Source: a virus
Taxonomy: Duplodnaviria > Heunggongvirae > Uroviricota > Caudoviricetes
DNA: 64,000 nt
IMG/VR virus record: IMGVR_UViG_3300035696_000002
Strand: one strand, 5' to 3'
The notes under the pieces are model-generated. The model searched no databases and was not told where the DNA came from. It saw only the letters and a program-made list of their open reading frames with translations. Each line of letters begins with the position of its first letter. Positions within the stretch are counted from its first letter, which is position 1. This document shows, piece after piece, positions 21,996 through 59,009 of this stretch. Both the position numbers and the translations under genes were made by a program.

Positions 21996-21998
21996 AAT

Positions 21999-23267: not shown

Positions 23268-23268
23268 C

Positions 23269-30190: not shown

Positions 30191-31255
30191 ATGAGTCTTG
30201 TTTCCCAACGTCCGTGTAACTGGTCTGAGATCGTCGGTCAGAACCGAGCCATCGAGATCATCAAGGCAGCCATCTCCCACCCCGAATTTCTCAATCGTGG
30301 ATTCATTCTCAAAGGCCCCACAGGCGTGGGCAAGACCATCACCGCAATCGTCATGGCCCGTGCCCTGATGTGCACCGGAGGCGATCCGTTGGGTTGCGGC
30401 ACATGCGACTCCTGTAATCTCCGAACCCACAACTTGCTTGAAGTGGATGGTGCTCAGTATGGCGGGCACAGCCGGGTAAAGGAACTGATCGACTTCGCTG
30501 CGGTTGCCCCAATAGACAGTAAGCGGCGTGTGGTGATTGTGAATGCCGCACACCTACTCACGAAGGATGCTTGGTCAGTCTTTCAGCGGCCTCTTGAAGC
30601 ACCAGCCAACGCTTCTGTATTCATCTTCGTTTCAAGTCAGGGGGATGAGATCGAGCACTCGATTCGTTCCCGCTGTTGCGTTGTCGAATTCCATCCGGTA
30701 GCCGCTGACAAGATGCTGGGTACCCTGTCAAATCTGGCATCGAACAACAACATCACGTACAAGCTGGAAGCCTTACAGTACATCGCCCACGCAGCGAAGG
30801 GGATTGTTCGTGACGCTGTCCAATGGCTCGATACAGCCGCCACGCTGGGGGAAGTGACAGTTGAGAACGTTCGAGGTGTGGTGGACAATTCACTGGAAGA
30901 TTTGTGCAAAAAATTTCTACTGTCCGTTGCGTCCCGCGATATGACTCTGTCTGTAAAATTAGCAGATGAAATTGGAATCAAGACCACGCCGGGGAAGGCC
31001 ATCGAAATGATGCTCTCGGTTTATGGTAGGTCGGTGTTTGGTGGGGAAGAACTGCGAAACATTTACCTCGGCCTGCCCGCCGTTGGGGACGTGACCAACA
31101 TCCTCATCAAGTGGAGCCACGCACCACACGGATTGCCTTCGGATGCTCTTCCGCTGCTCGCATTCGAGCTTTTGACCACCAAGAAGGGTGCGATCCCCAA
31201 GCCAGCCCCGGCCCCTGTTCCTGAGGCCAAAGCAGCCTCCGTACTGGACGACTAA
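30191..31255 (+). CDS. DnaX-like (DNA pol III tau/gamma-like) AAA+ clamp-loader subunit with a zinc module
   Basis: Walker A GPTGVGKT, then CTGGDPLGCGTCDSC (zinc module as in DnaX); the Walker B position reads VVIVNAAHLL, not hhhDEXH. Confidence 0.6.
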   Translation: MSLVSQRPCNWSEIVGQNRAIEIIKAAISHPEFLNRGFILKGPTGVGKTITAIVMARALMCTGGDPLGCGTCDSCNLRTHNLLEVDGAQYGGHSRVKELIDFAAVAPIDSKRRVVIVNAAHLLTKDAWSVFQRPLEAPANASVFIFVSSQGDEIEHSIRSRCCVVEFHPVAADKMLGTLSNLASNNNITYKLEALQYIAHAAKGIVRDAVQWLDTAATLGEVTVENVRGVVDNSLEDLCKKFLLSVASRDMTLSVKLADEIGIKTTPGKAIEMMLSVYGRSVFGGEELRNIYLGLPAVGDVTNILIKWSHAPHGLPSDALPLLAFELLTTKKGAIPKPAPAPVPEAKAASVLDD

Positions 31256-32155
31256 ATGGATTTGATTGTCGAGACAGATATCGGGCGAGACCCGGACGAT
31301 TTCTTTGCCATCTGCTACCTCGTAGCTGCTGGCATCAACATTCGAGCCATCACCATTTCACCGGGCGATCAGGATCAGGTTGCTGTCGCCAAGTTTCTCT
31401 GCACTCAGTTGGGCCTGAACATCCCAGTGGGCGTGGCCGATGTCAACCGTCAGAAATCGAGTGTAGGTGGAATGCACACCGCCATGCTCAAAAAATACGG
31501 CTTCACCTTACGGCATCCATCAGATGGGCAGGGCTGGGCAGTTATCCGGGATACGATGGAGAGCTACCCGGATAGCGAATTGTTCATCATCGGGCCTCCG
31601 CAGAGTGTTGGTGCATATCTGGAAGGGCCGTGGGTAGTGCACCGTCCGTTCTACCAGATTTGGATGCAAGGTGGTTTCGTGGGCTATGATGTCCATCAAC
31701 ACCCAGTGAAAGTCAGGCTGCCCAAGTTCGAAGGCAAACGCAGTGTAGGCACGTTCAACATGAACGGTGATGTAGTCGGCACGCAGCGTATTCTTGCTTT
31801 GCCCGGCGTTGCCCGCCACTTCATTGGGAAGAATGTGTGCCACACGATTGAGTATGACCGAGCCCGGCACGCCAAGGTGACAGCAGTGCCGCCGCAAAAT
31901 CGGGCCATGGAACTTCTGCACGAAGGCATGACGATGTATTTGGCGAAGCATGACAAGAAATTGTTCCACGATCCCGCAGCCGCCGTCTGTATGCTGCACC
32001 CGGAGATCGGGACGTGGATCAATGGAACACTGTTTCGTGAGGGCTCCGGCTGGGGTACCGAATACGTTCCGCCACGGACGCCGGGGAAGACCGACCAAAT
32101 GCTCGTGGACATCGACTATGATAGACTATGGCAGCATGTAACTGAGGGATCATGA
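31256..32155 (+). CDS. inosine-uridine-preferring nucleoside hydrolase (IU-NH) family protein
   Basis: N-terminal ETDIGRDPDD matches the IU-NH DxDxxxDD motif. Confidence 0.6.
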   Translation: MDLIVETDIGRDPDDFFAICYLVAAGINIRAITISPGDQDQVAVAKFLCTQLGLNIPVGVADVNRQKSSVGGMHTAMLKKYGFTLRHPSDGQGWAVIRDTMESYPDSELFIIGPPQSVGAYLEGPWVVHRPFYQIWMQGGFVGYDVHQHPVKVRLPKFEGKRSVGTFNMNGDVVGTQRILALPGVARHFIGKNVCHTIEYDRARHAKVTAVPPQNRAMELLHEGMTMYLAKHDKKLFHDPAAAVCMLHPEIGTWINGTLFREGSGWGTEYVPPRTPGKTDQMLVDIDYDRLWQHVTEGS

Positions 32156-32985
32156 GACACAGCGACCTGTTCGATTTCATCAAAGAACGTCATGCGATCT
32201 ATACCCGGCGTCAGCAGGGCATCAAGAAGCCATGGACGTATGACCACATCCTTCAGAATTACCGTTTCTGCAACGTGTATCGCGAACTCGATACTGTGAC
32301 GCAGTGGATCGCTAAGAACTGGCGTGATCCGAACACCAACGATAACAACGTGTGGTTCGCCATGGCAGTCGCCCGTCTCGTCAATTGGCCGGACACCATG
32401 GAAGCTCTTGGCTATCCCGTGCCGTGGAATCCGAAACATTTCATAACAACATTGGCAGGCTTGAAGATGGCAGGAGCAAAAGTCTTCACGGGGGCCTACA
32501 TGATTCCTGCCGATGCAAGATACACATCAAAGGCGGAGTCCATCGCTACCGCAGTGCTCACCCCGATGTGGGAGAAACGGAATTACATCTACGAGGCGAC
32601 TGACTGTCTCGCCCACTTCCATCACCGCTTGATGAAGTTCAACGGTATGGGCAGTTTCCTTGCCGGGCAGGTCGTATGCGATGCCAAGTACACGACGCTG
32701 CTTAGAGACGCCTCGGACTGGGAGACGTGGGCGTGTTCCGGCCCCGGCAGCCGTCGCGGACTCAATCGAGTCGCGGGTCGCCCGGTCAACGCACCATGGA
32801 AAGAGAGTGACTGGTTTAAGACCCTGACGGAACTCAAGCAGGTCATCGACATTCTGGTTGTGGACGCAAACATGCCAGCCATTCATGCACAGGATTTGCA
32901 GAACTGCCTGTGTGAATTCGACAAGTACGAACGAGTCAGATTAGGAGAAGGGAAGCCTCGCAGCAGGTACCCCGGAAAGCCATGA
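32152..32985 (+). CDS. hypothetical enzyme-like protein (277 aa), ATGA-coupled to the nucleoside hydrolase
   Basis: Track ORF; conserved-looking YRFCNVYRELD and W/H/D-rich segments; family not recognised. Confidence 0.55.
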   Translation: MRHSDLFDFIKERHAIYTRRQQGIKKPWTYDHILQNYRFCNVYRELDTVTQWIAKNWRDPNTNDNNVWFAMAVARLVNWPDTMEALGYPVPWNPKHFITTLAGLKMAGAKVFTGAYMIPADARYTSKAESIATAVLTPMWEKRNYIYEATDCLAHFHHRLMKFNGMGSFLAGQVVCDAKYTTLLRDASDWETWACSGPGSRRGLNRVAGRPVNAPWKESDWFKTLTELKQVIDILVVDANMPAIHAQDLQNCLCEFDKYERVRLGEGKPRSRYPGKP

Positions 32986-33344: not shown

Positions 33345-33509
33345 TTCTTCCCCTTGTTCCAGTATGGAGTTTTGCATCCGGCACAACGGACGGGGGTGAG
33401 TGTTTGCCAAACCCCGTCCACGAGGTTCAAGTCGGGGCACCATGTGTGCCCGCACCGATCACAGGTGCATTCCTTGGCCTCGACGGCTATGGTTCTGATC
33501 GCCATTTTG

Positions 33510-33531
33510 AACTTAAGTGTACACTCAAGTT
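33510..33531. promoter_or_regulatory. imperfect 22-bp palindrome aacttaagtGTACACtcaagtt (operator-like) in the divergent intergenic region
   Basis: Seen directly; ACTTAAGT and GTGTACAC are each perfect palindromes; the region is AT-enriched. Confidence 0.45.
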
Positions 33532-33548
33532 ACAGTTTTGTCAAAATC

Positions 33549-33557
33549 CCAGTATTA
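33549..33557 (+). promoter_or_regulatory. conserved motif CCAGTATTA, 7 nt before ATG 33564
   Basis: aaaatcCCAGTATTAcat; a possible -35 element (ttacag) lies 17 nt upstream of TATTAC. Confidence 0.4.
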
Positions 33558-33563
33558 CATAGC

Positions 33564-34916
33564 ATGATTCTGGAATACGGCCCGATTGAGAAACTTCAAG
33601 GCCTCCCATGGTACATGGTTGAGGTTCGATCCGAAAAGACTATTGAATCCACGATGCGTCGCGTTGGGAACGCCCTCCACGGTATCTTTCGGGACGAACC
33701 CATCGAGATATTCATCCCGGTTGTGCGTCGCGATTTGGACGTTTTTGAGTTGTCCACACAAGTGTACTGCTTTGTTCGCGGCACCAGCACTGGCTTCCCG
33801 GCTCTGTTGCGGCTTAAGAGCGTGACTGGAATCGTGGGCCTAGTCACCGAAGGCGACACCAACAGGCCCTCCAAGGCTCTTCAATGGCCCGACGCGGACG
33901 TTCAGAAACTCATCTCTGACGCCGAGGAGGAGCATCGTAAGCGTGCCATGGGCATTGAGGTTGGCAGCTTCGTTCGCATCTTGAATGGCGAGACCCGAGA
34001 CTACTGTGGCGTCGTGGAGATCATCGGCGACGGCAAGGCTGTCGTAAGAATCACCCTCCGCACCAAGTCGATTCTGCTTGAGACCCCGATTCGCAACTTG
34101 CTAAACCTTGGTGAAGTCGCCCCAGAGCGGCGAGTCTATTACTACGGCCCACTCGTAGACCAGCTAATCAAAGACAACCCTGAAGACGGCCCCAAGCTGA
34201 TTGAGGAAGACCTCCACCTCGACGAACCCACACCTCAGATCGAGGTGCTGGATGAGCCGCTGCCGGAGCATGAGCCCAAGAAGCATTCCCGCCAGCGTAC
34301 TGTCACGGCCCTTGTGAAGAAGCTCGTCATGCTGGAGAACAAGACCAACCCCATGGAAATCGCCAAGGTGGTTGTCGAGTCTTTGAAGAGAGGCGACATC
34401 AAGGCACCAAAGAACCTCTTTATCGTCTACTGCATCATCAAGGATCATCTCATGCGAGAGCACTTCCGCAAGCTCGATCCGACGATTAAGAACTACCGTG
34501 AAGTGATCCACAAGTACGGCAAGGAGTTCAAGTTCTCGGCCCAACAGATCGCAGCCCTTGATCCGGCCCTCGGCATCCCTGTGCAGTCTGCGGATTCTGA
34601 GGAGGATGAGCCGATAGTCGAAGAGCCGACTATAGAAATCCCTATTGAACAGCCGAAAAAGTCACGCAAGAAGAAGGCTGAGGCTGCCGCTGCTGAGGTC
34701 AAAAAGATAGAGAAGCCCGGCAAGAAGATTCACAAAAAGCAGCGGAAAGCAAGTACTGACACGTGCGGCGAATGCTATCACCCACGCAGCGAACACAACA
34801 AAACTGCGAAGGGCAACTGGGCTCGCTGCAAGGGTAAGACAAATCCCAAGCTGCACCCGTGGATCGAAGGCGTAAAGCCGTGCTGGTGCAAGCGGTTCAA
34901 AGAGAAGGCGAAATAG
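33564..34916 (+). CDS. NusG-like transcription factor paralog (NGN-like region plus KOW), with a long Lys/Cys-rich C-terminal extension
   Basis: KOW motif GSFVRILNGETRDYCGVVEIIGDGKAVVRITL; start taken at the ATG after the non-coding leader of track ORF 33354..34916. Confidence 0.55.
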   Translation: MILEYGPIEKLQGLPWYMVEVRSEKTIESTMRRVGNALHGIFRDEPIEIFIPVVRRDLDVFELSTQVYCFVRGTSTGFPALLRLKSVTGIVGLVTEGDTNRPSKALQWPDADVQKLISDAEEEHRKRAMGIEVGSFVRILNGETRDYCGVVEIIGDGKAVVRITLRTKSILLETPIRNLLNLGEVAPERRVYYYGPLVDQLIKDNPEDGPKLIEEDLHLDEPTPQIEVLDEPLPEHEPKKHSRQRTVTALVKKLVMLENKTNPMEIAKVVVESLKRGDIKAPKNLFIVYCIIKDHLMREHFRKLDPTIKNYREVIHKYGKEFKFSAQQIAALDPALGIPVQSADSEEDEPIVEEPTIEIPIEQPKKSRKKKAEAAAAEVKKIEKPGKKIHKKQRKASTDTCGECYHPRSEHNKTAKGNWARCKGKTNPKLHPWIEGVKPCWCKRFKEKAK

Positions 34917-37121: not shown

Positions 37122-37380
37122 AGGTGGTCGCCAGCCCGGCCAATGTGAGTTTGGTAAGTACTGCTGCGGCGGCACCTGCCGTCGCTACTGCCACAGACCC
37201 GCCACTAAGTACCTCGACTTTAATCGACCAGAAGAGGAAGTAAAGAACGGTCGCCTCGGGGGAATCCATCTCTGCACCAAGCACTACGCCGAGGAGCGGG
37301 GACACTTCGATTATCGCCGTGAAGAATTCCTGTCCGCTCTGGTACAATATGGGGTAAGGCGGGAGCAAACCAATGTTTGA
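37081..37380 (+). CDS. Cys-rich protein, distant relative of the array family (CxxxxC...HLCTKHY)
   Basis: GTG inside track ORF 36994..37380; high GC3. Confidence 0.45.
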   Translation: MNKNDSLKPHDGFEGGRQPGQCEFGKYCCGGTCRRYCHRPATKYLDFNRPEEEVKNGRLGGIHLCTKHYAEERGHFDYRREEFLSALVQYGVRREQTNV

Positions 37381-37867
37381 ACGATTCACGGAACCAGCAC
37401 GTCGAGCAATATTCTTTGCCCGGTACGAAGCCTCACAGTACGGCTCACCCTACATTGAACCGGGACATCTGCTACTCGGTTTGCTTCGCGAAGACAACAA
37501 ATTCTTCAAGGCTCGTGGGCTAACTCGTCAGCAAATCGAGAAGACACAGGCCCTCAACAAATTCCCCGGTGAACGCATTCGCACGAGTGTTGATCTACCT
37601 ATGGCAAATACAACCAAAGAAGCCTTGAGTGTGGGCGTGCAGGTAGCGGATACGCTTGGCTCACAGCGTGTGAGCATCGAACATCTTTACGCCGGGGTGT
37701 TGAAGGCGGAAAAGGAAGAAATCGCCTACACAACTTTCATAAAGGAACTCGAAGCGGCGTCCAACCCTGTGGTGAAGATGGCCGCAAAGAAGTCCTCACT
37801 TCAACTGACGGCTGCCGAAGAACAATTGATCTTGGCTTTGCGATCCCTTCGTAAGGAAGCACAATGA
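37373..37867 (+). CDS. Clp N-terminal (Clp_N) double-repeat domain protein with no AAA+ module
   Basis: MFERFTEPARRAIFFARYEA...EPGHLLLGLLRE is typical of the ClpA/B/C N-domain; only 164 aa. Confidence 0.6.
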   Translation: MFERFTEPARRAIFFARYEASQYGSPYIEPGHLLLGLLREDNKFFKARGLTRQQIEKTQALNKFPGERIRTSVDLPMANTTKEALSVGVQVADTLGSQRVSIEHLYAGVLKAEKEEIAYTTFIKELEAASNPVVKMAAKKSSLQLTAAEEQLILALRSLRKEAQ

Positions 37868-38163: not shown

Positions 38164-38449
38164 CAAAGACGACCGCCGCGAAATCATCCAGAAAATCCAG
38201 ACCAATCAGGCTCAGTACGTGGGCCGATCCTCGCTTACTCGCTCCCTGTGGCAGGTTGAGCACGAGGGGCAGACGATGAACGTTGTCTACGATAAGCCCC
38301 GGCATACCCTGTGCACCGCCCTACCGACCGACGCCCACGAGTTTCAGAAGTCCGCCATGGTTCAACCCGAGGAACCCAAGCAGGCATCGTCAATACGATC
38401 TCAGATCACGGAAGAATTGACGCGGCTGTGGTGCGACGAAGAAAAATAA
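37886..38449 (+). CDS. hypothetical protein; the true start is probably internal (about 38070-38280)
   Basis: Track ORF; GC3 is convincing only in the 3' half. Confidence 0.4.
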   Translation: MPSTTGVIGVTAPLGCHTDLLVLLPTTSLRRVPMNGWRPNYMGRMATPNICVGSPDVMLQCCYGSGAVGKKTPAKLNAHTKKRAEQRYGLTLNKDDRREIIQKIQTNQAQYVGRSSLTRSLWQVEHEGQTMNVVYDKPRHTLCTALPTDAHEFQKSAMVQPEEPKQASSIRSQITEELTRLWCDEEK

Positions 38450-38451
38450 AA

Positions 38452-38471
38452 GGGCGAGCCGAAGCCCGCCC
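38452..38471. terminator. bidirectional hairpin GGGCGAGC-CGAA-GCCCGCCC between convergent genes; a T-run follows it on the minus strand
   Basis: Seen directly; the minus-strand reading gives hairpin plus TTTTATTTTT downstream of the OMP gene. Confidence 0.55.
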
Positions 38472-38490
38472 TGAGTGAACCCCATCGCCA

Positions 38491-39288
38491 TTAAAACTTG
38501 TACTGCACCAGAAAGTCCGCCGTCCCCATCACATGACGGCTGTGATCCTGTGCGTAGAAGTCCGGTGGATTGCACAGCGGATATTCTGACGCCGGGGTGC
38601 CGCATGGCTCTGTGATGGTTGTGTGGAACTCGTAGATGCCATACACGAACCGGGCACTCCAGTGCTTTGAGTATTCCGGCGAAGGCATGAAGATCGTGAT
38701 CTCAGGCCCCTGCACGCCGTTGCCGCAGCCCTGACAAACGAAGCCGGGGCTGGTTGGGGTTGCCGGGTAGGAGACTGACTCGTGCTGCGGGGGCAGGAGG
38801 TAGAGCACCTGTGCACGCATGTTGAAGTCGCCGTTCGAGAAGTGATGGAACCAATCCTTGCCGCCGCCAAACTGGTAGCGAATGTCGCCCTGTTTGACCG
38901 CTTGGAAGAAGTTCGTGCCCTTGGTGTAGTTGCTGGTGATTAACTCATTCCACCGCATGCCGCCGCCGAAGTACCAGTTGCCCTGCTTGTAGCCGCAGAA
39001 CCCGGCAACGTAGTCGTCATGGCCCTTGATGTTGTTCTCGGTACCATCGTTGGTCTTTTTACCGTTGTCGATGGCGACGTAGGTATCGCACACCGCGTGC
39101 TTCCCGTTCAAGTAGAGACCACCCTGCCCACGGACTGCAACGGCCCCGTAGCCGTTCGGCATCAGTGAAAGCCCACCAGCGACGTAAGGATGGGGGATGT
39201 AGGACTCGTAGGTTTTGGGTTGAGTGGACTGAGCGACCATGGAGAGGCAGCACAGGCACATCAGCAACAGAATCGTGGTGGTTCTCAT
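38491..39288 (-). CDS. secreted outer-membrane beta-barrel protein (signal peptide, C-terminal ...YKF)
   Basis: Signal MRTTTILLLMCLCCLSMVAQS; alternating aromatic/Gly-rich beta-strand pattern; terminal Phe typical of OMPs. Confidence 0.55.
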   Translation of the reverse strand: MRTTTILLLMCLCCLSMVAQSTQPKTYESYIPHPYVAGGLSLMPNGYGAVAVRGQGGLYLNGKHAVCDTYVAIDNGKKTNDGTENNIKGHDDYVAGFCGYKQGNWYFGGGMRWNELITSNYTKGTNFFQAVKQGDIRYQFGGGKDWFHHFSNGDFNMRAQVLYLLPPQHESVSYPATPTSPGFVCQGCGNGVQGPEITIFMPSPEYSKHWSARFVYGIYEFHTTITEPCGTPASEYPLCNPPDFYAQDHSRHVMGTADFLVQYKF

Positions 39289-39372
39289 AGGTGTTTCCCT
39301 CGGTTCGGACGTATTAAAACGATCTTGGCCTACACTAGCACTTACCGTACCATCCTGTCAAGCAATATCAGC

Positions 39373-39547
39373 CGTGCCACTTCACTCCGCCGAAATGCAC
39401 GATTGTCAACGCAAGGCTCAACCAAATGATTCCACAGAACGCGGCGGCTCCGGCCAGTCCGTCGTTGCGACCGAACAACCAGATAATCAGGGCGAACAGG
39501 AAGCCGATAACGCCCAAGGCAACGCAGATGGCCGCGAGGATGCTCAT
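39373..39547 (-). CDS. small membrane protein (58 aa, 2 TM)
   Basis: MSILAAICVALGVIGFLFALIIWLFGRNDGLAGAAAFCGIIWLSLALTIVHFGG...; stop/start overlap with the upstream gene. Confidence 0.4.
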
Positions 39548-39789
39548 AGCAGCCCGGCGTTGCGGAACGCCTGAATCTGTCCGGCCTTACGTTGCTGGTC
39601 AAGATAATAGAGGATCGCGGGAATGCCGTACACGTAGAACACCACGATGTTGGCAACCGCTACCAGCCCGAGGAACCAGATGGATTGAGTGAACGCGAGG
39701 AGGAGCGGGAGCCCAAACCATGCGGCGACCGCTACCCCGAGAATCTTTGCGGCCTTAACGGCCAAGGACATCTTGTTAGTTTTCGTCAA
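39544..39789 (-). CDS. membrane protein (81 aa, 2 TM)
   Basis: Track ORF. Confidence 0.5.
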   Translation of the reverse strand: MTKTNKMSLAVKAAKILGVAVAAWFGLPLLLAFTQSIWFLGLVAVANIVVFYVYGIPAILYYLDQQRKAGQIQAFRNAGLL

Positions 39790-40123
39790 TTGGGCCTCCC
39801 AAAACTCGATTCACAATCCGCTTGCTGGCGTACACGCGGAATTTCGGATCGACAATGATCTCCCCGGTGCTGCCGTAGCACAGGACGTAGGTGCGGGAAC
39901 TGTGGATGTAGTCCATCCCGGCGTCGATGGTGATCCACGGATCAAGACCGCAATCACCATGGGCATCATCCGTGAGGTAGATGTACAGCGTTTCGTCTAC
40001 AAGGTTCTCGAACGCCCATTCGGCGGTTACCGCTTGGCGACCGCACTGGTCGGCGGCATAAGCCCCCGGATCGTCGCTGGCGTCCACGTAGGTGTGTTTG
40101 ATGACTCCGTCTAGCTTAGCCAT
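39776..40123 (-). CDS. hypothetical protein
   Basis: Track ORF. Confidence 0.5.
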   Translation of the reverse strand: MAKLDGVIKHTYVDASDDPGAYAADQCGRQAVTAEWAFENLVDETLYIYLTDDAHGDCGLDPWITIDAGMDYIHSSRTYVLCYGSTGEIIVDPKFRVYASKRIVNRVLGGPIDEN

Positions 40124-40469
40124 TGCTCACTTCCAATTCTTCGCCAATGCCGAGGTTGATGTTCTGCGGCATCTGGAACATGGGATTGTCCAAGCCGTAG
40201 ACACCGATGATGATGGCGATAGCGAACGCCCGGTCGGTGATGGGAAGGCCCTTTGCGATGCTGCCTGACATGGTACCCGAGGCCTTCGTGTAAGTCAGTT
40301 TCTCTTCGGCCATGCGGCACAGGTCAACGATGTCCATGTTCGCGTAACGCGGCAGGGACAACAGGACAGGGATGATTTCGGCCTTGACCTTCAACGGCTG
40401 ATCCGTTTCGGACACGGCACTCGCCCATCCGTAGAACTTGCTGTCACGTGCGTGTTGAGTACCCGACAT
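40116..40469 (-). CDS. hypothetical protein
   Basis: Track ORF. Confidence 0.5.
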   Translation of the reverse strand: MSGTQHARDSKFYGWASAVSETDQPLKVKAEIIPVLLSLPRYANMDIVDLCRMAEEKLTYTKASGTMSGSIAKGLPITDRAFAIAIIIGVYGLDNPMFQMPQNINLGIGEELEVSNG

Positions 40470-40918
40470 TATTGACCCCCAATCTTGCTGCCGATTTGAC
40501 TGAATACGTTGCCAGCCTGAGAACCGATCAGGTGAATGGTGCCGATAGCGATGACGAGGATGACCGCCAGCATGACGGCATACTCAGCAACGTCCTGCCC
40601 ACGTTCATCACGCCACGCGGCGACAGCCTGTTCACGGGTGAATCCGAACTTCTTCATCAACTTCCCAACCGCGAAGGCCGCGAACTTGGGGTAACGAATC
40701 GTGGCGATGAACTTGCGGATGGCTGCCTTGGTCGGCGGCTTCACTTTCTTGGGGAAGTCGGACGGATGGTAGCCATGGGTGCCATCAACCTGTACGTGCG
40801 TGCCGCCGACGCAGCCAAGCCACGCGATGGGGTCGGCCTTGGTCGCACGGCGAAGTACGCCGATGCGTCCACCGCACTTAGGGCATTCCCGATCTCGAAG
40901 GTTGAGTCGCTTTGCCAT
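40469..40918 (-). CDS. zinc-ribbon domain fused to a C-terminal Flp/Tad-type pilin module
   Basis: N-terminal CPKCGG...C; C-terminal RDERG-QDVAEYAVMLAVILVIAIGTIHLIGSQAGNVFSQIGSKIGGQ matches the Flp prepilin G/XXXXEY site plus the hydrophobic core and a short polar tail. Confidence 0.55.
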   Translation of the reverse strand: MAKRLNLRDRECPKCGGRIGVLRRATKADPIAWLGCVGGTHVQVDGTHGYHPSDFPKKVKPPTKAAIRKFIATIRYPKFAAFAVGKLMKKFGFTREQAVAAWRDERGQDVAEYAVMLAVILVIAIGTIHLIGSQAGNVFSQIGSKIGGQ

Positions 40919-40920
40919 AC

Positions 40921-41094
40921 CTATTTCGTCTCCTGTGTATGTCGCTCGTTACGGTACCGGGCGACGAGAATCCACGCTTCTCCGGCTTTCAGATTGAACT
41001 TCATTTGCATGCGTCCAACCATTGCCTCCGGCTTGAGGTTCGGTTGGGCGGTACGCCACATGTCCAGTGCGTCACGATGTTGCTGTGTTAGCAT
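40921..41094 (-). CDS. hypothetical small basic protein
   Basis: Internal ATG of track ORF 40921..41202 (-). Confidence 0.4.
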   Translation of the reverse strand: MLTQQHRDALDMWRTAQPNLKPEAMVGRMQMKFNLKAGEAWILVARYRNERHTQETK

Positions 41095-41399
41095 GCCCAC
41101 TCCGTTGCGTCCGGGATGGTGTCGCTGTTGTCGGCTTCCGCCCGGAACCGCTCGATATGTTTTTCGCAGAAGGCGTTCAACTCCTCCAGCGAACCAAACC
41201 ACGGCGTCAGCGTGCAGCGGTAGAGCCCGGCTTCCGGCTCCGCTTCCGCTCCGATGGCGAGAACGGCCTTCACGCGGGTCTCGTCCTCAGCATCGGACAG
41301 GGCCTCGATGTCTTGGAGGATGTACAGGTCGAACAGGCTGCACACTTCCTCGACAAAAGGTACGTCCGCGAGTTTGCCGTTCGTGTAGTCGTGACGCAT
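41088..41399 (-). CDS. hypothetical acidic protein
   Basis: Track ORF. Confidence 0.5.
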   Translation of the reverse strand: MRHDYTNGKLADVPFVEEVCSLFDLYILQDIEALSDAEDETRVKAVLAIGAEAEPEAGLYRCTLTPWFGSLEELNAFCEKHIERFRAEADNSDTIPDATEWAC

Positions 41400-41755
41400 T
41401 ACTTCTTTCCTTTCTTGCTGCCGAACAACTCCGCCATACCCTTCATGTATCTCACTTCCTTGCGGATATCAGTCGCCGTCAGGCGGTTGGCATACTGAAA
41501 GTGCCAGCGGTCATGCACGGCAAGGTGAATGAGTTGGACAGGCTTCAACGAGAACACGACGTACTGAGCGTACCCGTCGCCCACCGGGAACCGCACGATC
41601 TCGCCAGCCAGTTCGCTGGAGCCATTGTCTTTGGCATACTTCACAACGTCGGCGATATGCTTCTGCGTCGCCTTCTCGTATGCCTCGAAGTCGAACGGAT
41701 GGGTGATCTCTGGAGCCGCACCCACTTCTTTCGGAGCCGAGTAAATCTTTGCCAT
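41399..41755 (-). CDS. hypothetical protein
   Basis: Internal ATG (MAKIYSAPKE...) of track ORF 41399..41806 (-). Confidence 0.5.
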   Translation of the reverse strand: MAKIYSAPKEVGAAPEITHPFDFEAYEKATQKHIADVVKYAKDNGSSELAGEIVRFPVGDGYAQYVVFSLKPVQLIHLAVHDRWHFQYANRLTATDIRKEVRYMKGMAELFGSKKGKK

Positions 41756-42582
41756 TACCGCACCCCCTGAGCCGCCTTTTCCAACTGGCGGCGGAATTTG
41801 TTCCAAGCCACTTTCGCGGCCTGTTCTTCGTCCAGCATCCCATCCTGATAGTAATCGTCTTTGTGGTTCAGCTTGTATTCCTCGACCAGAACTTTGACAG
41901 CGGCATCGTCGATGATGACGGCCACGGGCTGAGCCGGGGCGTACAGGGCGGCAGCCGCCTCACGTCCGTTGATCCGGTCACGCACGGCACTCAGGGATTC
42001 CCCCTTGCCGACGAACTTGCCATCCTGAAACACGGTCTCCAAGTGCGAAGTGTCCGGGGCAACAGTGTGGCTCACCTTGTAGGAATCGGTTTTGCGAATC
42101 GGGTCGATACCCGGCAGCGTGGCGGCGAACCCGGCGTTGACCAAGTGAATGCACTCGGGGCCGAAGCCAGCTTCGATTGATTCGGGCACGGTCAGCGGAC
42201 GAGCACAACGACCGCAGCGGCCCTCGTGGTATACTTCGAAAATGCCGAGGCTGCCACGCTTGAACGACTCGAAAGCCGCGATGAAGTCCACAACTGACGG
42301 AGCAGACTTTCCGGCACGGGCCTTCTGTCCGCCCCAAATGAAGCCCTCTTTCTTGATGAAGCCGATGTAAGCGTAGTCGCGGGTGTTGTCGGGGCCGTTC
42401 AGGAGAGCGACGAAATGGCACGAGGGGTCATTCGGATTGCGTTTTGTTGCTTCGGTGACCTTATACGTGTGACGTTCACCAGACTCCGTGTTGCGGAGGG
42501 TGAAGATCGCGTTGCCAGCGAGGATGAACTTCAAAGTGTTGACGGCTTCTTTGAGTTGCCCGGTCTGGACTGTGTCGCTCAT
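41755..42582 (-). CDS. hypothetical protein with a CxxC...GPxC zinc-finger-like motif
   Basis: Track ORF; GRCGRCARPLTVPESIEAGFGPEC. Confidence 0.55.
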   Translation of the reverse strand: MSDTVQTGQLKEAVNTLKFILAGNAIFTLRNTESGERHTYKVTEATKRNPNDPSCHFVALLNGPDNTRDYAYIGFIKKEGFIWGGQKARAGKSAPSVVDFIAAFESFKRGSLGIFEVYHEGRCGRCARPLTVPESIEAGFGPECIHLVNAGFAATLPGIDPIRKTDSYKVSHTVAPDTSHLETVFQDGKFVGKGESLSAVRDRINGREAAAALYAPAQPVAVIIDDAAVKVLVEEYKLNHKDDYYQDGMLDEEQAAKVAWNKFRRQLEKAAQGVR

Positions 42583-42649
42583 GCCTATAGTATACTGGTT
42601 CCGGGGATGTTTTGTCCAGTAGGTAACCTGTAGTCAGGAAAGGACTTAC

Positions 42650-43056: not shown

Positions 43057-43857
43057 ATGGCTCAACTCGATCCAGAACGTGAGGCGGATAGGGCTGCCGG
43101 GAAGGCGGCACTCATTCTGCTATTCGTTTTCATCCTGCTGTTCATCCTTCTGTTCGGGATTGTGCCAGCCGCCCACGGGGTATCCCTCGTGCCCGGCCAA
43201 CCCGCCAAGAAGCACCACCGCCAAAAGAAGCAGAAGCAGCCCTCGTGGTTTGACTACCGGGTTTTCATTCCATCGCACGAAAACCTGCTGGCTCAGAATG
43301 CCGCCATCGACGAGATGGGACTGCCTCGCATCCGGGATGACCAGTCGTTGAAGTCGTTGGAAGCGGAAGCTGCCCTTGTGCCGATCACGGACAACGAATA
43401 TGTCAGAGTGAGCCCGAAGCTTGAGACTAAGCGACGCTACTGTCGCCCATGGGTTGACGCCTTCCTCCAAGAGTTGGGGCGGGACTACTACACCAAGTTC
43501 GGAGAACCCATTCAAGTCAACTCCGCCGTCCGTACAGTCAAGACACAAAGCTGGCTGCTGCGTTGGAACCACAACGCGGCCCCGGCCCATGGAGAGACCG
43601 CATCGGCCCACCTTGCGGGTGTCGCTGTAGACCTGCAACGCAGGGGATTGACCCGAGAAGAAATCCGTTTCATTCAAAAAGAACTCCTGACCTTCGCGAA
43701 GATCAACATGGTGATCGTTGAAGAGGAGTTGAAGCAGCCATGTTTCCATGTCGTAGTCACAGAGGATTATCCTGTGCCGCCGAAGATAAATGTGGTAATC
43801 TCAGAGGAAGAACAACGGAAGGTGCTCAATGGAATCCTTAACGATCCAACAAAGTGA
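43057..43857 (+). CDS. peptidase M15 (VanY/L-Ala-D-Glu peptidase-like) endolysin with an N-terminal signal-anchor
   Basis: SAHLAGVAVDL matches the M15 SxHxxGxAxD zinc motif; N-terminal TM ALILLFVFILLFILLFGIV. Confidence 0.55.
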   Translation: MAQLDPEREADRAAGKAALILLFVFILLFILLFGIVPAAHGVSLVPGQPAKKHHRQKKQKQPSWFDYRVFIPSHENLLAQNAAIDEMGLPRIRDDQSLKSLEAEAALVPITDNEYVRVSPKLETKRRYCRPWVDAFLQELGRDYYTKFGEPIQVNSAVRTVKTQSWLLRWNHNAAPAHGETASAHLAGVAVDLQRRGLTREEIRFIQKELLTFAKINMVIVEEELKQPCFHVVVTEDYPVPPKINVVISEEEQRKVLNGILNDPTK

Positions 43858-46665: not shown

Positions 46666-47571
46666 ATGGGAATCGTTTTCTTTCTGATGTTTATCGCCCT
46701 GCTAGGCGTGGGCGTGTTCCGCTCTCTCGGTATCACCAAGGACTCTCGCACGGATGATATCTCTCTGCATTTCTCGGCCCTAAAGGGCGTTCCGTTCTAC
46801 ATTGCCTCTGTTCTTGTCTTTACCCTCTGGCTTTCGTTCACCACGGTTGACACAGGCTATCGCGGCGTCGTGCTGCGGTTCGGTGCCACGACCGGGCGAA
46901 CGCTCGATCCGGGGCCGCACTTCATTCTCCCGGTCGCTGAGTCTGTGGCACGGGTCAACGTTCAAACCCAGATCGTGAAACCAGACGAGATGGCAGCGTC
47001 GCATGACCTTCAGATCGTGCACACGCAGGTCACCCTCGCCTACTATCAAGACCCGGCCTACGCTGGATATGTCTACTCACAGCTTAGCGACGATGCTGCA
47101 ACCCGTATCATCAGCCCGGCCATCCTCGAAGCCATCAAGGCAGTCACCGCCAAGTACGACGCTGAGCAGCTTGTTGCAAAGCGTGCCGAAGTGCGTGATG
47201 GCATCGAAGACTTCGTGAAGCAACGCCTGACGCCTCACCACATTTTCGTGGACTCGGTGAGCATCACGGACTTCAACTTCTCCGATGACTACAACAAGGC
47301 CATCGAAGCGAAGGTGACCGCTCAGCAGAACGCCCTCAAGGCCCAGAACGATCTGACCCGTATCAAGATCGAAGCTGACCAGAAGGTCGCGGCTGCCGAG
47401 GGTGAAGCGAAGGCTCTGGCGTCCCAGAAGCAACAGATCACGCCGGAACTGCTCCAGCTTCGTACCATCGAAATGCTGAACAACAAGTGGGATGGACATC
47501 TGCCGGAGAACTACTACGGCGGCACCGCTCCTCTTCCCATGATGGATGTGCTCAAGAACCACAAGCAGTAG
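46666..47571 (+). CDS. SPFH/band-7 (prohibitin/HflKC-like) membrane protein
   Basis: N-terminal TM, then GYRGVVLRFGATTGRTLDPGPHFILP and a long coiled-coil tail typical of band-7 proteins. Confidence 0.65.
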   Translation: MGIVFFLMFIALLGVGVFRSLGITKDSRTDDISLHFSALKGVPFYIASVLVFTLWLSFTTVDTGYRGVVLRFGATTGRTLDPGPHFILPVAESVARVNVQTQIVKPDEMAASHDLQIVHTQVTLAYYQDPAYAGYVYSQLSDDAATRIISPAILEAIKAVTAKYDAEQLVAKRAEVRDGIEDFVKQRLTPHHIFVDSVSITDFNFSDDYNKAIEAKVTAQQNALKAQNDLTRIKIEADQKVAAAEGEAKALASQKQQITPELLQLRTIEMLNNKWDGHLPENYYGGTAPLPMMDVLKNHKQ

Positions 47572-48691: not shown

Positions 48692-48961
48692 ATGGGCAAG
48701 AAGTTAGGGGTATTTCGCTGCTTTTACTGTGACCGACAACTCAGTCGGCAAAAGAAAACCCGTGACCACATGACTCCCAAGAGCCGCAACGGCAGCAGTG
48801 CACCACGCAACATCGTGGATGCATGCAGGCCGTGCAATAATTTGAAGGGATGTTTGACGCTGGATGAATTCCGTATGGTGATCGCGTACCGCATGGGAAT
48901 CGCACACAAGCCGGAGTTCAAATTTCCCGGCGAACTGCGACGCGAACACGCCGGAGCTTAG
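48692..48961 (+). CDS. HNH endonuclease
   Basis: CFYCDRQL...TRDHMTPKSRNGSSAPRNIVDACRPCNNLKG is a classic HNH (CxxC...DH...N...CxxCN). Confidence 0.7.
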   Translation: MGKKLGVFRCFYCDRQLSRQKKTRDHMTPKSRNGSSAPRNIVDACRPCNNLKGCLTLDEFRMVIAYRMGIAHKPEFKFPGELRREHAGA

Positions 48962-50142
48962 TACTCGTATCCAGTCAGCGTCAGGTTGATGACGTTTGTC
49001 GTCGCTTGATCCAAGTGGCTCAGGCCGATACTCACCGTACCATTACCTGCGATTTCCAAACCATCCGGGATGTCCATGCTCATCTGTCCACCAACGCCTG
49101 TTGTTGCCGAAATGCCGAAGACTTCTGGGCATTGAACGAGGACGGGGCTAGTCGCGATTGTAGCTCCCGCTGTATTGGAACGCAGAGTGACACGGGAGAA
49201 CGGCACAGCAGCCGCACCTGCACGAACGCTTACGGAAATGTTTTGAATGCGGAGGGTCTTGCCTGACGTGATCGTGTAGCTGGTTACACCTGTTGTCACC
49301 GTCCCACCCTTGTTCTGTGACAAAGAGAATATTGTTTCAGATGTGACACCCGCTACCGCTGTTGCGGAAAGTGTGACGGCGGTACGGCCTGCGTCCTTGA
49401 GTTCCTGTACAGAGAAGCCCGTAGAGCCCTGTGTGCCTTTTGTGAGGGTGGTGCCGACGACTGTGGCATTTAGCAGGGCCGCATTGCTCTGCCCAACTGT
49501 CGGGACAGGTTCAAGGCTAACCTGAGAGCTTTGAATGATGAAGGTGACAGTGCCACTCCCTGTAATCGGGGTCGTCAAATTCACACGAAGATAGGCAAAG
49601 CCCGCTGTGTCAAATTCGAACGAAGAAGTGCCGAGAGTGGAGTTCCACGAAGTTACGGCATTATACGCACTCGCCTGTGCTCCCTGAATCGGCAACCAGT
49701 TAGCCCCGTCTTGAGAGACCTGAAAGGCGATGACGCCTGCCGAAACAGTTCCCGAAACGACGAAGCCGACTTGCACGTTGTTCTGCCCGTTGAGTGGCAG
49801 AGTCCACGTGGTGTTCGTCGCAGTCGCGGAAGTCCATGCTTGTGTAGTGCCAGAAAGTGTGCCTGAGTTATAGGCCAACAAAATCGTCGCGGTTCCTTCC
49901 CCTGTCCAAGGGCCTGAAAATGTTAGGACAATGTTTCCGAATCCGTCGAGCGTGGGAACGTATGTGGGCAAGTATCCGTCCGGGTTGATTGCCGTGGCGG
50001 ATGTTGGGAGTGTGCCTGAGTTGACAACTACGGCAGCTTGCGGGGCAAACGCGAACAACTGGTTGAATGAGTAGGTGAAGACAGTGGAAGAACCATCTCC
50101 GACAAGAGTGAGTGCCACTGCAACTGTTTGCTGAATTGCCAT
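48958..50142 (-). CDS. fibre-like structural protein paralog (394 aa), probable tail fibre/receptor-binding protein
   Basis: Shares the N-terminus MAIQQTVAVALTLVGDGSSTVFTY and the C-terminus ...NLTLTGYEY with the 971-aa gene; T/S/G/A/N-rich; carries a repeated beta-domain. Confidence 0.6.
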   Translation of the reverse strand: MAIQQTVAVALTLVGDGSSTVFTYSFNQLFAFAPQAAVVVNSGTLPTSATAINPDGYLPTYVPTLDGFGNIVLTFSGPWTGEGTATILLAYNSGTLSGTTQAWTSATATNTTWTLPLNGQNNVQVGFVVSGTVSAGVIAFQVSQDGANWLPIQGAQASAYNAVTSWNSTLGTSSFEFDTAGFAYLRVNLTTPITGSGTVTFIIQSSQVSLEPVPTVGQSNAALLNATVVGTTLTKGTQGSTGFSVQELKDAGRTAVTLSATAVAGVTSETIFSLSQNKGGTVTTGVTSYTITSGKTLRIQNISVSVRAGAAAVPFSRVTLRSNTAGATIATSPVLVQCPEVFGISATTGVGGQMSMDIPDGLEIAGNGTVSIGLSHLDQATTNVINLTLTGYEY

Positions 50143-50178
50143 TTTGGATTGTCCCCTTTGATTAGGGGAGCGAAAGTT

Positions 50179-53100
50179 TTATTCTTCCGTCCACTCAATC
50201 CAAACATCGCCAATGGGCGTCGTACCCACAGCACTGACGCAGATACCGATAAAGTCGGACGTGCCGCGTAAGACCAAGGTCTGATCGTTATTGATCCCAA
50301 AGTTCCACTCGATGAGGGGGATGTCTACGCTGACTGCTGCGGTCACGATTTCATAACGTTCAGTTGCGAGCACGTATACGTTCGTTGCGGTGGTGATAGC
50401 CGATGTGGTTGCGAACACAGTTGCAGTGTTGGCTGCATTGTTGGTATCCAACTTGCCAACTGTGACGCCGCCCGTACCCGCACCGCCGCCTGAAATCGCC
50501 GAGAAGCGGCGAAGGATAACGTCGCATGCAGTGCCAGTTCCCGCCGATGCGGAGAAGCGGATTTTTGTGATACGGACGGTCTTGGTGCTGCTCCCCGTGA
50601 CATAAATGGTGGGTATCGTAGATGATCCGAGCAGCGTGTAAGCCACAATGCCCGCACGATAGGTCTGCTTGCGGCCTTCTTGGTTGATGTAATGGCTACC
50701 CGTAGTATCAACCTGCTGGGCAACCTGCTGCCCCGTGGTGAGGGTGGGGGCGGTGGAATTGTAAGTCCCCATCGGGGAGTTCACTGAAGCAGCGTTAACA
50801 GTCGCCCAGTACGGCGTGACTGAACCACCAGCCGTGGTGGTGCTGACTTGCAGACGCAGCCCTGTGTAACCGTACAAAATGATTTTGAACGCACGGTTGG
50901 TTGACGCAACTAGCGTGTAGGGTAATGTAATCGGCAGCAAGCTCGTTGGGTCAATTACGCAGCTTGCGGGAATCGTAGCCCAGTTGATGCCGTCAGCCGT
51001 AACTTGGAATGTGATCGCACCAGCCGAGATACCTGAACCTTGGTCGAGTTGCACCATGTACGCTTGCGGCTGCACGCCGGAGCCGGGGGAGTCAATAGTC
51101 TGGAACGTGCCGGAGGTTGTACCCGCAGCCCATGTGGTACCAGTTGTGAAGTTCTGCCAAGGCTCAGTGAAGACCGGGGCAATGACTTCAACGGATGCAG
51201 GGTTGACAGTCGAGCGTACAAGCACTGTGCCTGTGCCCGACGTAAACGTGGTGCAACGAACACGGAAGTGGGTGAAGCCAGCCGCGATTGTGCTACCTTC
51301 AAAGTTCGTGTTCGGTGAAGCCGCACCTGTAAATGTCGATGCTTCAGAGGACGTACCCGTAAGGTGAATATACTGAGCTTGCCAAGTCGTACCGCCGTCC
51401 GTGGATGCTTCCGTGACAACCGTTCCAACGAGGGTTCCTGACATCTGGACACGCAACGAGGACGCTCCGACAACCGGGAACACAGCAGCGGAGTTTGCAG
51501 TTGGAGTCCCTGAAACTGCGTTCTGACCGTTTGCCCACGTGACAGACGTGGAGGCCGCGTCAGCAGCGGTGATGTTGATGGCGTTCGATGTGTTGTCGGT
51601 GTAGACGCTCTCAGTAGTACCGAACGAACCACCACCCATAACCATCGTGATGTTCGTGGCATTGGTGGTGTTTAGAACTTCAGCTTGGTAGTTCCAGTTG
51701 GTCGCGTAAGTCCATGGCGTCGTGCCTTGGTTCGGCACAACGATGGTGTGCATCACAACCCAGTTGCCATCGGGGCTAAACACTTCAAGAACAATTGATG
51801 CCGCACCCAACCAGCCGCCACGCAGACGGTACAGGTTTAGGTTCGTTAGGGTCAGGGCTGTTGGAGTGCCGCCCTGAGTGAATTTCGAACCAGATGACCC
51901 CGTGCACTGATCGCCACTGAAGCTCGCACGAGCAACGGATGGGGCGGAGTTGGCCGAGAAGCTGCCCTGTCCCGTTCCAGCCTTGAAATAAGAGATACCG
52001 AATGTCGTACCTTCAAAACCAACGCATACGCCGTTCGTTGGCGTGTTTACTGCACCTGTAAGAGCACCGATACGCTGATGGGATGCTGCCACACCCGTAG
52101 TGAATGCCGCCGTGAAATAGAAATACCACTCGTGCGACACACGGTAGTTCATTCCATACGTGGATTGCAGGTTGGCACTGGTGCTCGCTGCCGCAGTCGT
52201 TGCAAGGGTGACCGAGCCATTGCTGTAGGTTGCAGTGCCCGTCGTACCTGTCAACTGGGTTAAAGCAGTGTTCTGTCCTTCGGAGAAGTCCTGTTGCCAT
52301 TGCGAGTTGCGGATGCAGTGGATGATGTCACCGAAAGAATCCAATGAACCATTCTCAGCGATCTTCAGGTTGCCGAGAATGTCCATCTGCAACTGTGCGG
52401 GCATACCCTGCGAATATGTAGTGGAGGCGTTGTCCTGCTGTACGGCAGCGGCGACAACCAGTGGCTCACCGATGTAATCATCGTCAATCTGGACACGGTC
52501 TGTGTCGATGAAGTAGGTGTAGTCAACCAATAAACTCGTGGAGCTAACGGGGGCAGTGCCGCCGTTTAATGTGTAGTAAACCACCTGCATCGCATTGTAT
52601 GGGCCGGGGATGTGCAGGGTATTCGTGGCAACGACAACACCGTCAATCAGCAGCGTAGCTTGGTTCGCCGAGAGACTGATTGAATACGTGTGGTATGTGC
52701 CCGAGTTGGTGCCGAGCGGGTATGTAAATGCTGTGGTCTGCGTATCTGTCGCAGCCGAGGACGACTGAGTGATGAAGTTGCCCGTTGTGTTGGTCGTACC
52801 TGACAGCGAAACGACAGCAGTGTAGTTCGGCGTGCTGCTCAGGGTATCTTGGAAACCGAAGACCACGGTCTCGTTTGCGATACGCTGAGAGACTTCAACA
52901 TAGGTCTGAAGCAAAAGCGGCAAGTAATCAGCCTGTGCACCGATGATGCCTGTGAACGCCGAGGCCGTAGTGCCTGAGGCAATTGTCAGGACAGAACTTG
53001 CGACGGCGAACGAACCACCGGAACCTGTTAAAGTACGCCAGTTCGTTACCTGACCCGCAGCGGTGGTCGCGGTACCCGGATAGTTGGATACGAGTTGCCC

Positions 53101-55191: not shown

Positions 55192-55220
55192 GAATCATCC
55201 TTCAATCAGGAATCTGTAGT

Positions 55221-58136: not shown

Positions 58137-58146
58137 TGTCTATTCC

Positions 58147-59007: not shown

Positions 59008-59009
59008 AA

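Follow-up and report, generated by a model that had tools for sequence, protein, structure and literature searches.

The 64-kb window analyzed here, that is, the whole stretch of 64,000 nucleotides (nt) from the Caudoviricetes record IMGVR_UViG_3300035696_000002 to which all coordinates refer, contains ten consecutive open reading frames (ORFs) on the minus strand at positions 38491-42582. They were named g10 (promoter-proximal) to g1 and, together with a promoter and a terminator, make up the cassette described in this work. A first-pass annotation of the sequence had proposed ten genes at this position, and they proved to be real: besides appearing in the ORF listing, the same ten genes, with lengths of 275/118/103/57/149/117/115/81/59/265 amino acids (aa), were obtained by independent gene calls on identical metagenome contigs, and all ten share the codon usage of the phage. 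The contents it had listed were found as well, namely a barrel protein with a signal peptide (g1), two small peptides with two transmembrane (TM) helices each (g2 and g3), a fusion with a part resembling an Flp pilin (g6), and a finger protein (g10, DUF6011). We consider it very probable that these genes constitute a conserved operon and not a recently acquired island. The features of the cassette are, in the direction of transcription:

42589-42618, minus strand: sigma70-like promoter (TGGACA, 18 nt, TATACT; 10 of 12 consensus positions)
41755-42582, minus strand: g10, 275 aa, first gene and anchor of the cassette; N-domain (residues 1-155), disordered linker, C-terminal helical domain
41399-41755, minus strand: g9, 118 aa, soluble, lineage-specific insert
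41088-41399, minus strand: g8, 103 aa, core gene, strongly acidic (23 D/E versus 8 K/R)
40921-41094, minus strand: g7, 57 aa, basic, called on metagenome contigs, lineage-specific
40616-40918, minus strand: N-terminal part of g6 (residues 1-101), Zn-ribbon (CPKCGG...)
40469-40615, minus strand: C-terminal part of g6 (residues 102-149), Flp-like prepilin core
40116-40469, minus strand: g5, 117 aa, core gene after Flp, with a TAATG stop/start overlap
39776-40123, minus strand: g4, 115 aa, acidic, lineage-specific
39544-39789, minus strand: g3, 81 aa, 2-TM peptide matching the N-terminus of 206- and 239-aa membrane proteins in relatives
39368-39547, minus strand: g2, 59 aa, 2-TM peptide, lineage-specific
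38491-39288, minus strand: g1, 265 aa, last cassette gene, predicted secreted outer-membrane barrel of about ten strands
38441-38472, minus strand: intrinsic terminator (9-bp GC-rich stem, UUCG loop, UUUUAUUUUU tail)

Neighbouring genes of the block mostly overlap or abut, and sites resembling a Shine-Dalgarno (SD) sequence precede most starts. The mean log synonymous probability of the block was -1.01, compared to -1.11 ± 0.07 in 24 reference genes of the window, while its guanine-cytosine (GC) content ranged from 0.54 to 0.61 versus 0.51 to 0.59 in the reference. A comparison of GC and codon usage, which had been suggested as a check, therefore did not mark these genes as foreign. A 440-aa plus-strand ORF at 40448-41770 was also considered as a gene, but was rejected with a codon score of -1.31 versus -1.01 for the block. 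The surrounding genome, described in the first-pass annotation as otherwise plus-stranded, is so only locally; a bigger minus-strand block lies at 48958-61126. Searches of all ten proteins against Pfam, PHROGs, NCBIfam and PADLOC returned only DUF6011 and phrog_20259, both for g10, next to sub-threshold noise (DUF2761 for g4, ChaB for g10 and ArAE_1 for g3).

The promoter upstream of g10 is a rarity in this genome segment, as a strict scan of the 64 kb found only two of this kind, the other strong sigma70-like promoter being located on the plus strand at 3042-3071 (TTGACA-18-TATGAT). Because the -10 element stops 6 nt short of the g10 ATG in the window, a leaderless or near-leaderless g10 mRNA is predicted. 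The same distance of 6 nt was found in the related loci L007 and L008, while a leader of 17-18 nt with a GGAGGG SD sequence precedes the g10 homologues of L006, L015 and L102. The element itself recurs in front of these homologues as TGGACA-18-TATACT in L006, TGGACG-18-TATATT in L015, TATACT in L102 and TATAAT in L007 and L008. The 67-nt gap (42583-42649) that separates g10 from the divergent plus-strand gene had been thought to hold promoters in both directions. The gap and the minus-strand promoter stand; no plus-strand sigma70 match was present within it. A second conserved motif upstream of g10 (TTGAAAAC...TAATATAG) initially looked like a divergent promoter, but proved to be where the reading frame of the opposite-strand d_61 homologue begins (...LLVFN...).

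At the other end, the terminator starts 18 nt past the stop codon of g1. Its hairpin (38451-38472), with the 9-bp stem and the minus-strand T-run, is real: a 57-nt stretch around it has a folding energy of -22.5 kcal/mol (z = -3.6), a stability that no sequence among 200 shuffles attained. However, it had been called bidirectional, and this does not hold. The plus strand reads GAGTGAACC after the hairpin, and the T-run UUUUAUUUUU is found on the minus strand only, therefore the element is by sequence a one-way terminator. A comparable strong terminator is located downstream of the g1 homologue in L102. Taken as a whole, the predicted signals support the notion that the block is transcribed autonomously, from a promoter of its own to a terminator of its own. 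Within the block, the gap between g2 and g1 contains a perfect TTGACA on the minus strand (39356-39361) with a weak -10 element (TAGTGT), which is located 68 nt upstream of g1 and may serve this outer-membrane protein gene as an internal promoter.

Related loci were fetched via the neighbouring DUF5715 protein, g1, g6 and their homologues, and the synteny rests on six phage lineages, i.e., the window, L006, L007, L008, L015 and L102. A reverse-oriented block led by the DUF6011 gene occupies the same place in L006 (332-kb contig), L007, L008 and L102. On one flank of it lie homologues of the 520-, 248-, 133- and 204-aa replication-side genes and a 187-aa gene, and on the other flank homologues of d_72 and DUF5715. 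In L015 (458-kb contig), the same DUF6011-led reverse block is situated between opposite-strand genes, with a clamp loader a few kb off. The gene orders are as follows:

Window: g10-g9-g8-g7-[Zn+Flp]-g5-g4-g3-g2-g1
L015: g10-g8-[2TM+Flp]-g5-60-58
L102: g10-g8-[2TM+Flp]-g5-239aa-g1-terminator
L006: g10-g8-2TM-Flp-g5-...-206aa
L007: g10-Flp-g5-...-g8
L008: g10-g5-49aa-g8

The only genes found in all six phages are g10, g8 and g5. L008 is the only one of the six without the Flp gene, and g5 follows this gene wherever it is present in the cassettes compared. Lineage-specific inserts of the window phage are g9, g7, g4, g2 and the Zn-ribbon half of g6; of these, g9 and the Zn-ribbon turn up by themselves in phage contigs that are unrelated. 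The old core of the cassette thus consists of g10, g8, the Flp-like pilin and g5, around which small genes are gained and lost. The distantly related Tunturiibacter phage Tunturi_5 carries neither the cassette nor g10, and its flanking genes differ as well. A further candidate relative (L004) was rejected, since only the N-domain of g10 is common to both and synteny is lacking.

The phage itself is a huge one. A protein identical to g10 was found on a contig of 463,087 bp, and the g6 protein is present on eight contigs, four of which are 0.2-1 Mb in size; the window is therefore part of a huge phage of approximately 463 kb, of which the 64 kb analyzed here are a section. The jumbo phage Tunturi_5 is the only isolated relative, and its match to the 520-aa ORF beside the clamp loader has 47.7% identity. 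This phage has a genome of 308.7 kb and infects an Acidobacteriota strain (PMC11924767). A megablast search of window positions 36-45 kb against isolated phages gave no match. The nearest cellular kin of the pilin segment all belong to metagenome-assembled genomes (MAGs) of Acidobacteriota/Terriglobia, with up to 80% identity over 45 aa. Since these closest pilin relatives and the host of Tunturi_5 point to the same phylum, we infer that the host is most likely a member of the Terriglobia (Acidobacteriota).

With regards to these data, the proposal of the first-pass annotation that the ten genes are an accessory island of the moron type can be assessed. According to this explanation, a recently acquired lysogenic-conversion island would be expressed from the prophage and provide superinfection immunity or a fitness benefit to the host. 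Several features fit, as the block is equipped with a promoter and a terminator of its own, both Flp and the outer-membrane barrel are kin to chromosomal genes in the presumed host phylum, and the gene content is variable, since relatives lack g9, g7, g4, g2 and the Zn-ribbon, and g1 is placed elsewhere in the loci L009 and L104. In addition, an Flp pilin has been reported as prophage cargo in Sinorhizobium meliloti (PMC12429752). However, five other related phages carry the cassette with its core in a syntenic position, and absence from relatives with the flanks adjacent was seen only for g9, g7, the Zn-ribbon, g4 and g2, not for the cassette. The g10-led block is kept beside replication-side genes, which is largely the arrangement that had been named as speaking against a moron, although this conserved placement holds for the cassette as a whole and fails for several individual genes. 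Base composition and codon usage are not deviant either, as the codons are those usual for the phage or score slightly above its average, and members of the g10 family are frequent among large phages that infect Caulobacter, Rhizobium and Agrobacterium. Neither an integrase nor a repressor was noticed in the annotated parts of the window of this ~463-kb phage. Of the original proposal, the autonomous unit, the envelope products and the absence of some genes in relatives thus remain, while the conserved placement, the native composition and the missing sign of lysogeny do not agree with it. An effect on the envelope or on superinfection is still a reasonable expectation from the predicted products, but a moron island is very unlikely, and the label of a recent moron island should not be propagated, whichever function is true.

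In g6, a Zn-ribbon is fused to a Flp-like pilin. The Zn-ribbon part has 25 standalone homologues of 102-117 aa (62-82% identity) ending in ...FTREQAVAAWKARV*, and these sit in unrelated small-gene clusters. A Zn-ribbon gene that would normally lie beside flp was considered and rejected, as the standalone homologues occur in other contexts. The Flp part consists of RDERG|QDVAEY, a hydrophobic helix of 19 residues and then NVFSQIGSKIGGQ, and its homologues are named "Flp pilus assembly pilin Flp" by JGI. It is approximately 80% identical to the chromosomal Flp of Terriglobia MAGs, where the gene encodes a canonical 55-aa prepilin with MKNLLSLLWRDERG|QDVAEY, and the C-terminal exposed part is conserved with the host Flp, not the TM helix alone. 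The fusion junction reads AAW|RDERG|QDVAEY, the host counterpart ...LLWRDERG|QDVAEY. The junction merges the end of the Zn-ribbon protein with the end of the Flp leader, and the pilin itself appears to be captured from the host. The fusion sequence is identical on eight contigs from three sources (ENA, JGI and Logan) and is therefore not an assembly error. A tblastn search of g6 against isolated phages gave no match.

The relatives carry the pilin in other forms. In L007 and L006, it is a standalone protein of 52-54 aa with its own SD sequence. A second type of fusion joins it to an upstream 2-TM protein that also has an acidic stretch and a CGDxxCxxC motif; at least 17 proteins of this type were found, some on contigs of 119-465 kb, and the upstream protein is a separate 131-aa ORF in L006. 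The two independent fusions give "leaders" of approximately 100-135 residues. In contrast, the usual leaders of prepilins comprise 6-26 aa and are removed on the cytoplasmic side (PMC4471445). Assignment as a pilin is based on motif, architecture and similarity to the Terriglobia proteins. The processing motif G|xxxxEY is present as RDERG107|QDVAEY and does not vary when phage and Terriglobia sequences are aligned, and the hydrophobic stretch forms a TM helix at residues 114-132 (hydropathy peak of 2.58) in a mature part of 42 residues. A short leader (6-26 aa in a prepilin of ~45-90 aa) is found in the standalone homologues of L007 and L006, but not in the 149-aa ORF, whose leader has 107 residues and includes the Zn-ribbon. 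Within g6, the codon of M88 (ATG at 40655-40657) is preceded by an SD-like GGGAAG, and a start there would result in a 62-aa prepilin with a leader of 20 aa. The gene may hence yield both the fusion protein and a plain pilin.

The long leaders allow for the explanation that the Flp segment is not a pilus subunit, but a cleavable class III signal or anchor that tethers or releases the fused domain, or a decoy for the peptidase. Two independent fusions with leaders of ~100-135 residues instead of the normal 6-26 aa (PMC4471445) are in line with this explanation, and so are a window that encodes neither pilus assembly genes nor a peptidase and the sub-threshold Pfam scores of the segment. On the other hand, L007 and L006 possess standalone forms with ordinary short leaders, the start at M88 could provide an ordinary 62-aa prepilin here as well, and conservation of the exposed C-terminal part with the host Flp suggests selection for fit into the host filament. 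We therefore regard a mere anchor or decoy as quite unlikely. A related and slightly more plausible, though still unlikely, idea is that the class III (prepilin) signal serves as a processing module, with the host Flp core repeatedly fused behind whole domains. The host peptidase would then mature a phage polyprotein at the membrane, or would be jammed by an uncleavable decoy, and in both cases the Tad-type pilus of the host would be disabled or remodelled, leading to a takeover of the surface or to superinfection exclusion.

The last gene of the cassette, g1, encodes another protein predicted to go to the envelope. It has a hydrophobic N-terminus (signal peptide) ending in ...MVAQS and a C-terminus of ...YKF, and a C-terminal [YW][RK]F is shared by 23 of the 25 aligned sequences of its family. 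The AlphaFold2 (AF2) model is a barrel of about ten strands (pLDDT of 84.6, pTM of 0.77), and the best PDB matches in a Foldseek search were the 10-strand barrels Pla/OmpT and OpcA with TM scores of 0.41-0.50. With the signal peptide, the aromatic beta-signal and the closed barrel all present, the model identifies g1 as an outer-membrane beta-barrel. No match was obtained in Pfam, NCBIfam or PHROG, nor any sequence match to the Lom/Ail or porin families; one distant member of the family reached 19.9 bits for OMP_b-brl, which is below the cut-off of 28.7. In a profile search, the family comprised 242 cluster representatives among 1.84 billion proteins, while a pattern search for g1 in viral contigs gave no match. 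Close members (49-89% identity) are located on phage-like contigs, and a 62%-identical homologue closes the L102 cassette in front of its terminator. The distant member examined in its context (L012, 36% identity) lies on a bacterial contig of 533 kb.

Membrane proteins are also encoded by the two genes preceding g1. The g3 peptide has 38% identity to the N-terminus of the 206-aa ORF of L006, and both contain a ...FR(N/A/S)AGLL motif. While g3 ends with ...NAGLL*, the homologues in L006 (6630-7250) and L102 (6953-7672) run on with a segment resembling a signal peptide and a larger domain. This suggests that g3 is what is left of a larger membrane protein, and the same may apply to g2. If g1 and the Flp segment of g6 are counted as well, four out of ten products are targeted to the membrane or envelope. 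The six others are soluble and include the non-pilin core of g10, g8 and g5.

Among the soluble proteins, g10 is the one with a recognizable domain. It scored 49.5 bits for DUF6011 (cut-off of 26.6) and contains an H/CxxC...GPxC zinc-finger-like motif in its N-domain; within CxxC...GxGPxC, the residues H119, C126, G141, P142 and C144 are invariant and C123 is nearly so in an alignment of 50 sequences. The N-domain and the C-terminal helices were well predicted in the structural model, yet no fold match was found. The N-domain family is also encoded by the large phages of Caulobacter, Rhizobium and Agrobacterium mentioned above and, with more than 1185 members, is spread over phage groups without Flp. 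Homologues of g8 were found in L006, L007, L008, L015 and L102, always inside the cassette, and those of g5 align over the full length in the same five phages. Sequence searches of the PDB with g10, g5, g8, g9 and g4 gave no match, and g8 remained without a Pfam or PHROG match and g5 without a family match as well. As for the inserts, g9 is not found in related cassettes, and its homologues (41-44% identity) reside in unrelated viral contigs without other cassette genes. For g7, neither a homologue in any fetched locus nor a family match was detected, and g4 showed only the sub-threshold DUF2761 (18 bits versus a cut-off of 25) and no kin in the fetched loci or, by pattern search, in viral contigs.

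This distribution raises the question of whether the operon serves a general early takeover of the host, exerted by the soluble g10 (a Zn-finger protein that possibly binds nucleic acids), g8 and g5, with the envelope genes as passengers. These three are the sole genes in all six phages including the Flp-less L008, g10 comes first in the operon and its family is spread over phage groups without Flp, and the distal gene content is fluid. However, five of the six phages keep Flp flanked by the same genes, with a mature part ~80% identical to the host Flp, every version of the cassette has membrane proteins (the 2-TM protein before Flp, the 206- and 239-aa proteins, or the 49-aa TM peptide in L008), and the outer-membrane barrel closes the cassette in two lineages. 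We thus assess this explanation as rather unlikely, even if it deserves more weight than the other alternatives.

Our preferred interpretation is that of a conserved, self-contained early operon of a huge phage that remodels the envelope and possibly the Tad pilus of the host; for this reading in its entirety, we consider the chances to be balanced. Since the promoter is near-consensus, of the sigma70 type and rare in the window, the unmodified host sigma70 RNA polymerase would read the cassette directly and probably early. The g6 product would enter the inner membrane and be processed after G107 by the prepilin peptidase of the host, and it would then either be fed into the host Tad-type pilus machinery or block it. 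These steps are probable because the pilin was presumably captured from the host and its mature part is still ~80% identical to the host Flp. A domain fused ahead of the prepilin leader would be harmless, because the leader is removed on the cytoplasmic side, and two products would result, which would explain why two different upstream proteins were fused to the pilin in this phage group. Finally, the pilin, g1 and the small TM proteins could alter the surface of the infected cell, e.g., by halting the adsorption of further phages. A specific role in the pilus or in exclusion is doubtful, though, and should be distinguished from the much better supported conservation of the operon.

A number of observations weigh against the preferred interpretation. 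The early timing is read from the promoter type alone, and L007 and L008 retain only the -10 element. As the L008 cassette is devoid of Flp, the pilin is not essential to the core, and with six soluble products including g10, g8 and g5, the main job of the operon may be cytoplasmic. The PADLOC defence models gave no match in the block except for a noise-level one for g10 (E = 0.024). For Pfam Flp_Fap (PF04964, threshold of 32.2 bits), the window segment was not a hit at all, reaching only 13 bits for Flp1_like, and the copy of L007 (24.3 bits) and chromosomal Terriglobia sequences (21.4 bits) scored below the threshold too; the whole Terriglobia Flp clade is in fact sub-threshold for this model. 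No tad genes were found beside the chromosomal Terriglobia flp genes examined (L013 and L065). In L065 (5296-17007) and L013, the 55-aa flp directly follows a pair of a HisKA_3 kinase and a LuxR-type regulator and is in turn followed by an exopolysaccharide (EPS) cluster with UDP-glucose dehydrogenase, Wzy_C and GNVR kinase. The host protein is therefore only a putative Tad pilin. Moreover, the 64-kb window contains no ORF with at least four TM helices, i.e., no polytopic membrane protein, and therefore no prepilin peptidase.

To our knowledge, almost nothing is known about the dealings of Acidobacteriota phages with their hosts, even though Acidobacteriota are a dominant phylum of soils. The cassette offers a concrete and conserved case, in which huge phages of one clade maintain a host-like Flp, an outer-membrane barrel and membrane peptides behind a host-type promoter, and in which the operon tolerates prepilin leaders of the size of a domain. 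If the pilin is processed and used, huge phages of the lytic type would rewire a Tad-like pilus, and nature would have provided a test of the maximum length of a prepilin leader. If it is not used, the cassette would be an ordinary early operon with fast-changing cargo.

The genes flanking the cassette encode, inter alia, the clamp loader, an RNA ligase, IU_nuc_hydro, HMUDK_hel, Clp_N and ClpP proteins, an SPFH protein and a DUF5715/M15-like peptidase. Four of them form a neighbourhood of proteostasis and envelope genes around the cassette:

37373-37867: Clp_N-domain protein
43057-43857: DUF5715/M15-like peptidase with an N-terminal TM helix
45663-46322: full ClpP
46666-47571: SPFH/Band-7 protein

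Further upstream, the clamp loader gene is followed by genes for proteins of the IU_nuc_hydro family and with HMUDK_hel (5-hydroxymethyl-dU kinase helical domain) in the region 30191-32985, which suggests thymidine hypermodification in the phage DNA. The 520-aa ORF beside the clamp loader (33354-34916) had no match in Pfam or PHROG; its homologue in Tunturi_5, gp25, carries the annotation "transcription antiterminator". In the larger minus-strand block, three proteins of 394, 1670 and 971 aa (48958-58136, minus strand) share an N-terminal segment of ~100 aa with each other and with a 249-aa protein of L015, and a C-terminal segment is likewise common to two of the three and the L015 protein. 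All three lack a Pfam or PHROG match and may be tail-fibre-like paralogues with swapped middles. The RNA ligase ORF (21984-23270, plus strand, 422 aa) is opposed by a nearly full-length antisense ORF of 428 aa, which is probably a compositional artefact.

For a comparison with known systems, the gene clusters of large phages are a suitable starting point. Large lytic phages of the T4 type transcribe their early gene clusters from host sigma70 promoters. As in these clusters, many small, packed and fast-evolving genes lie behind a strong host-type promoter and are gained and lost between relatives, whereas the cassette is unusually rich in envelope proteins and host-derived genes, and its timing is inferred. 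Temperate phages carry morons that encode envelope proteins, such as lom and bor of lambda and the Lc porin of phage PA-2. The cassette resembles them with its phage-borne outer-membrane barrel, its own promoter and terminator and its position beside unrelated modules. It differs from them in comprising ten genes that are syntenic in relatives and show no compositional shift, in a huge phage without a sign of lysogeny.

The Flp-like segment shares G|xxxxEY, a helix of ~20 residues and a very short mature protein with the bacterial Flp/Tad prepilins, e.g., Flp1 of Aggregatibacter and PilA of Caulobacter (PMC4471445), but is distinguished from them by a 107-residue leader with a folded Zn-ribbon, a sub-threshold Pfam score and the lack of linked tad genes. 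A Flp-type pilin gene in a phage genome is not without precedent, as a pilin of the Flp family (COG3847) is listed as cargo of the phiLM21-like prophages of S. meliloti (PMC12429752). In that case, however, it is prophage cargo of Alphaproteobacteria from an annotation table only, and neither a fusion nor an operon with DUF6011, g8 and g5 is described.

Virus-borne pilins have only recently been shown to matter, in one archaeal virus. The pilins PilA1 and PilA2 of the temperate archaeal virus SNJ2 are host-derived and assembled by the host machinery (PMC12426801). Here as there, the pilin genes were seemingly captured from the host, are widespread in related viruses and are carried without an assembly ATPase, platform or peptidase, and therefore must use the machinery of the host. 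While SNJ2 is a small pleolipovirus for which the assembly has been shown, the present case is a huge tailed bacteriophage with a putative 42-residue pilin of the Flp type, an N-terminal fusion of ~100 aa and an operon extending from promoter to terminator. A literature search on phage-encoded Flp, DUF6011 and Acidobacteriota jumbo phages revealed nothing beyond the works cited. This comparison highlights what is new in the cassette: it is carried by huge phages that infect Acidobacteriota, its pilin gene is embedded in a constant operon together with DUF6011, g8 and g5, and entire domains have repeatedly been fused to the leader of a prepilin.

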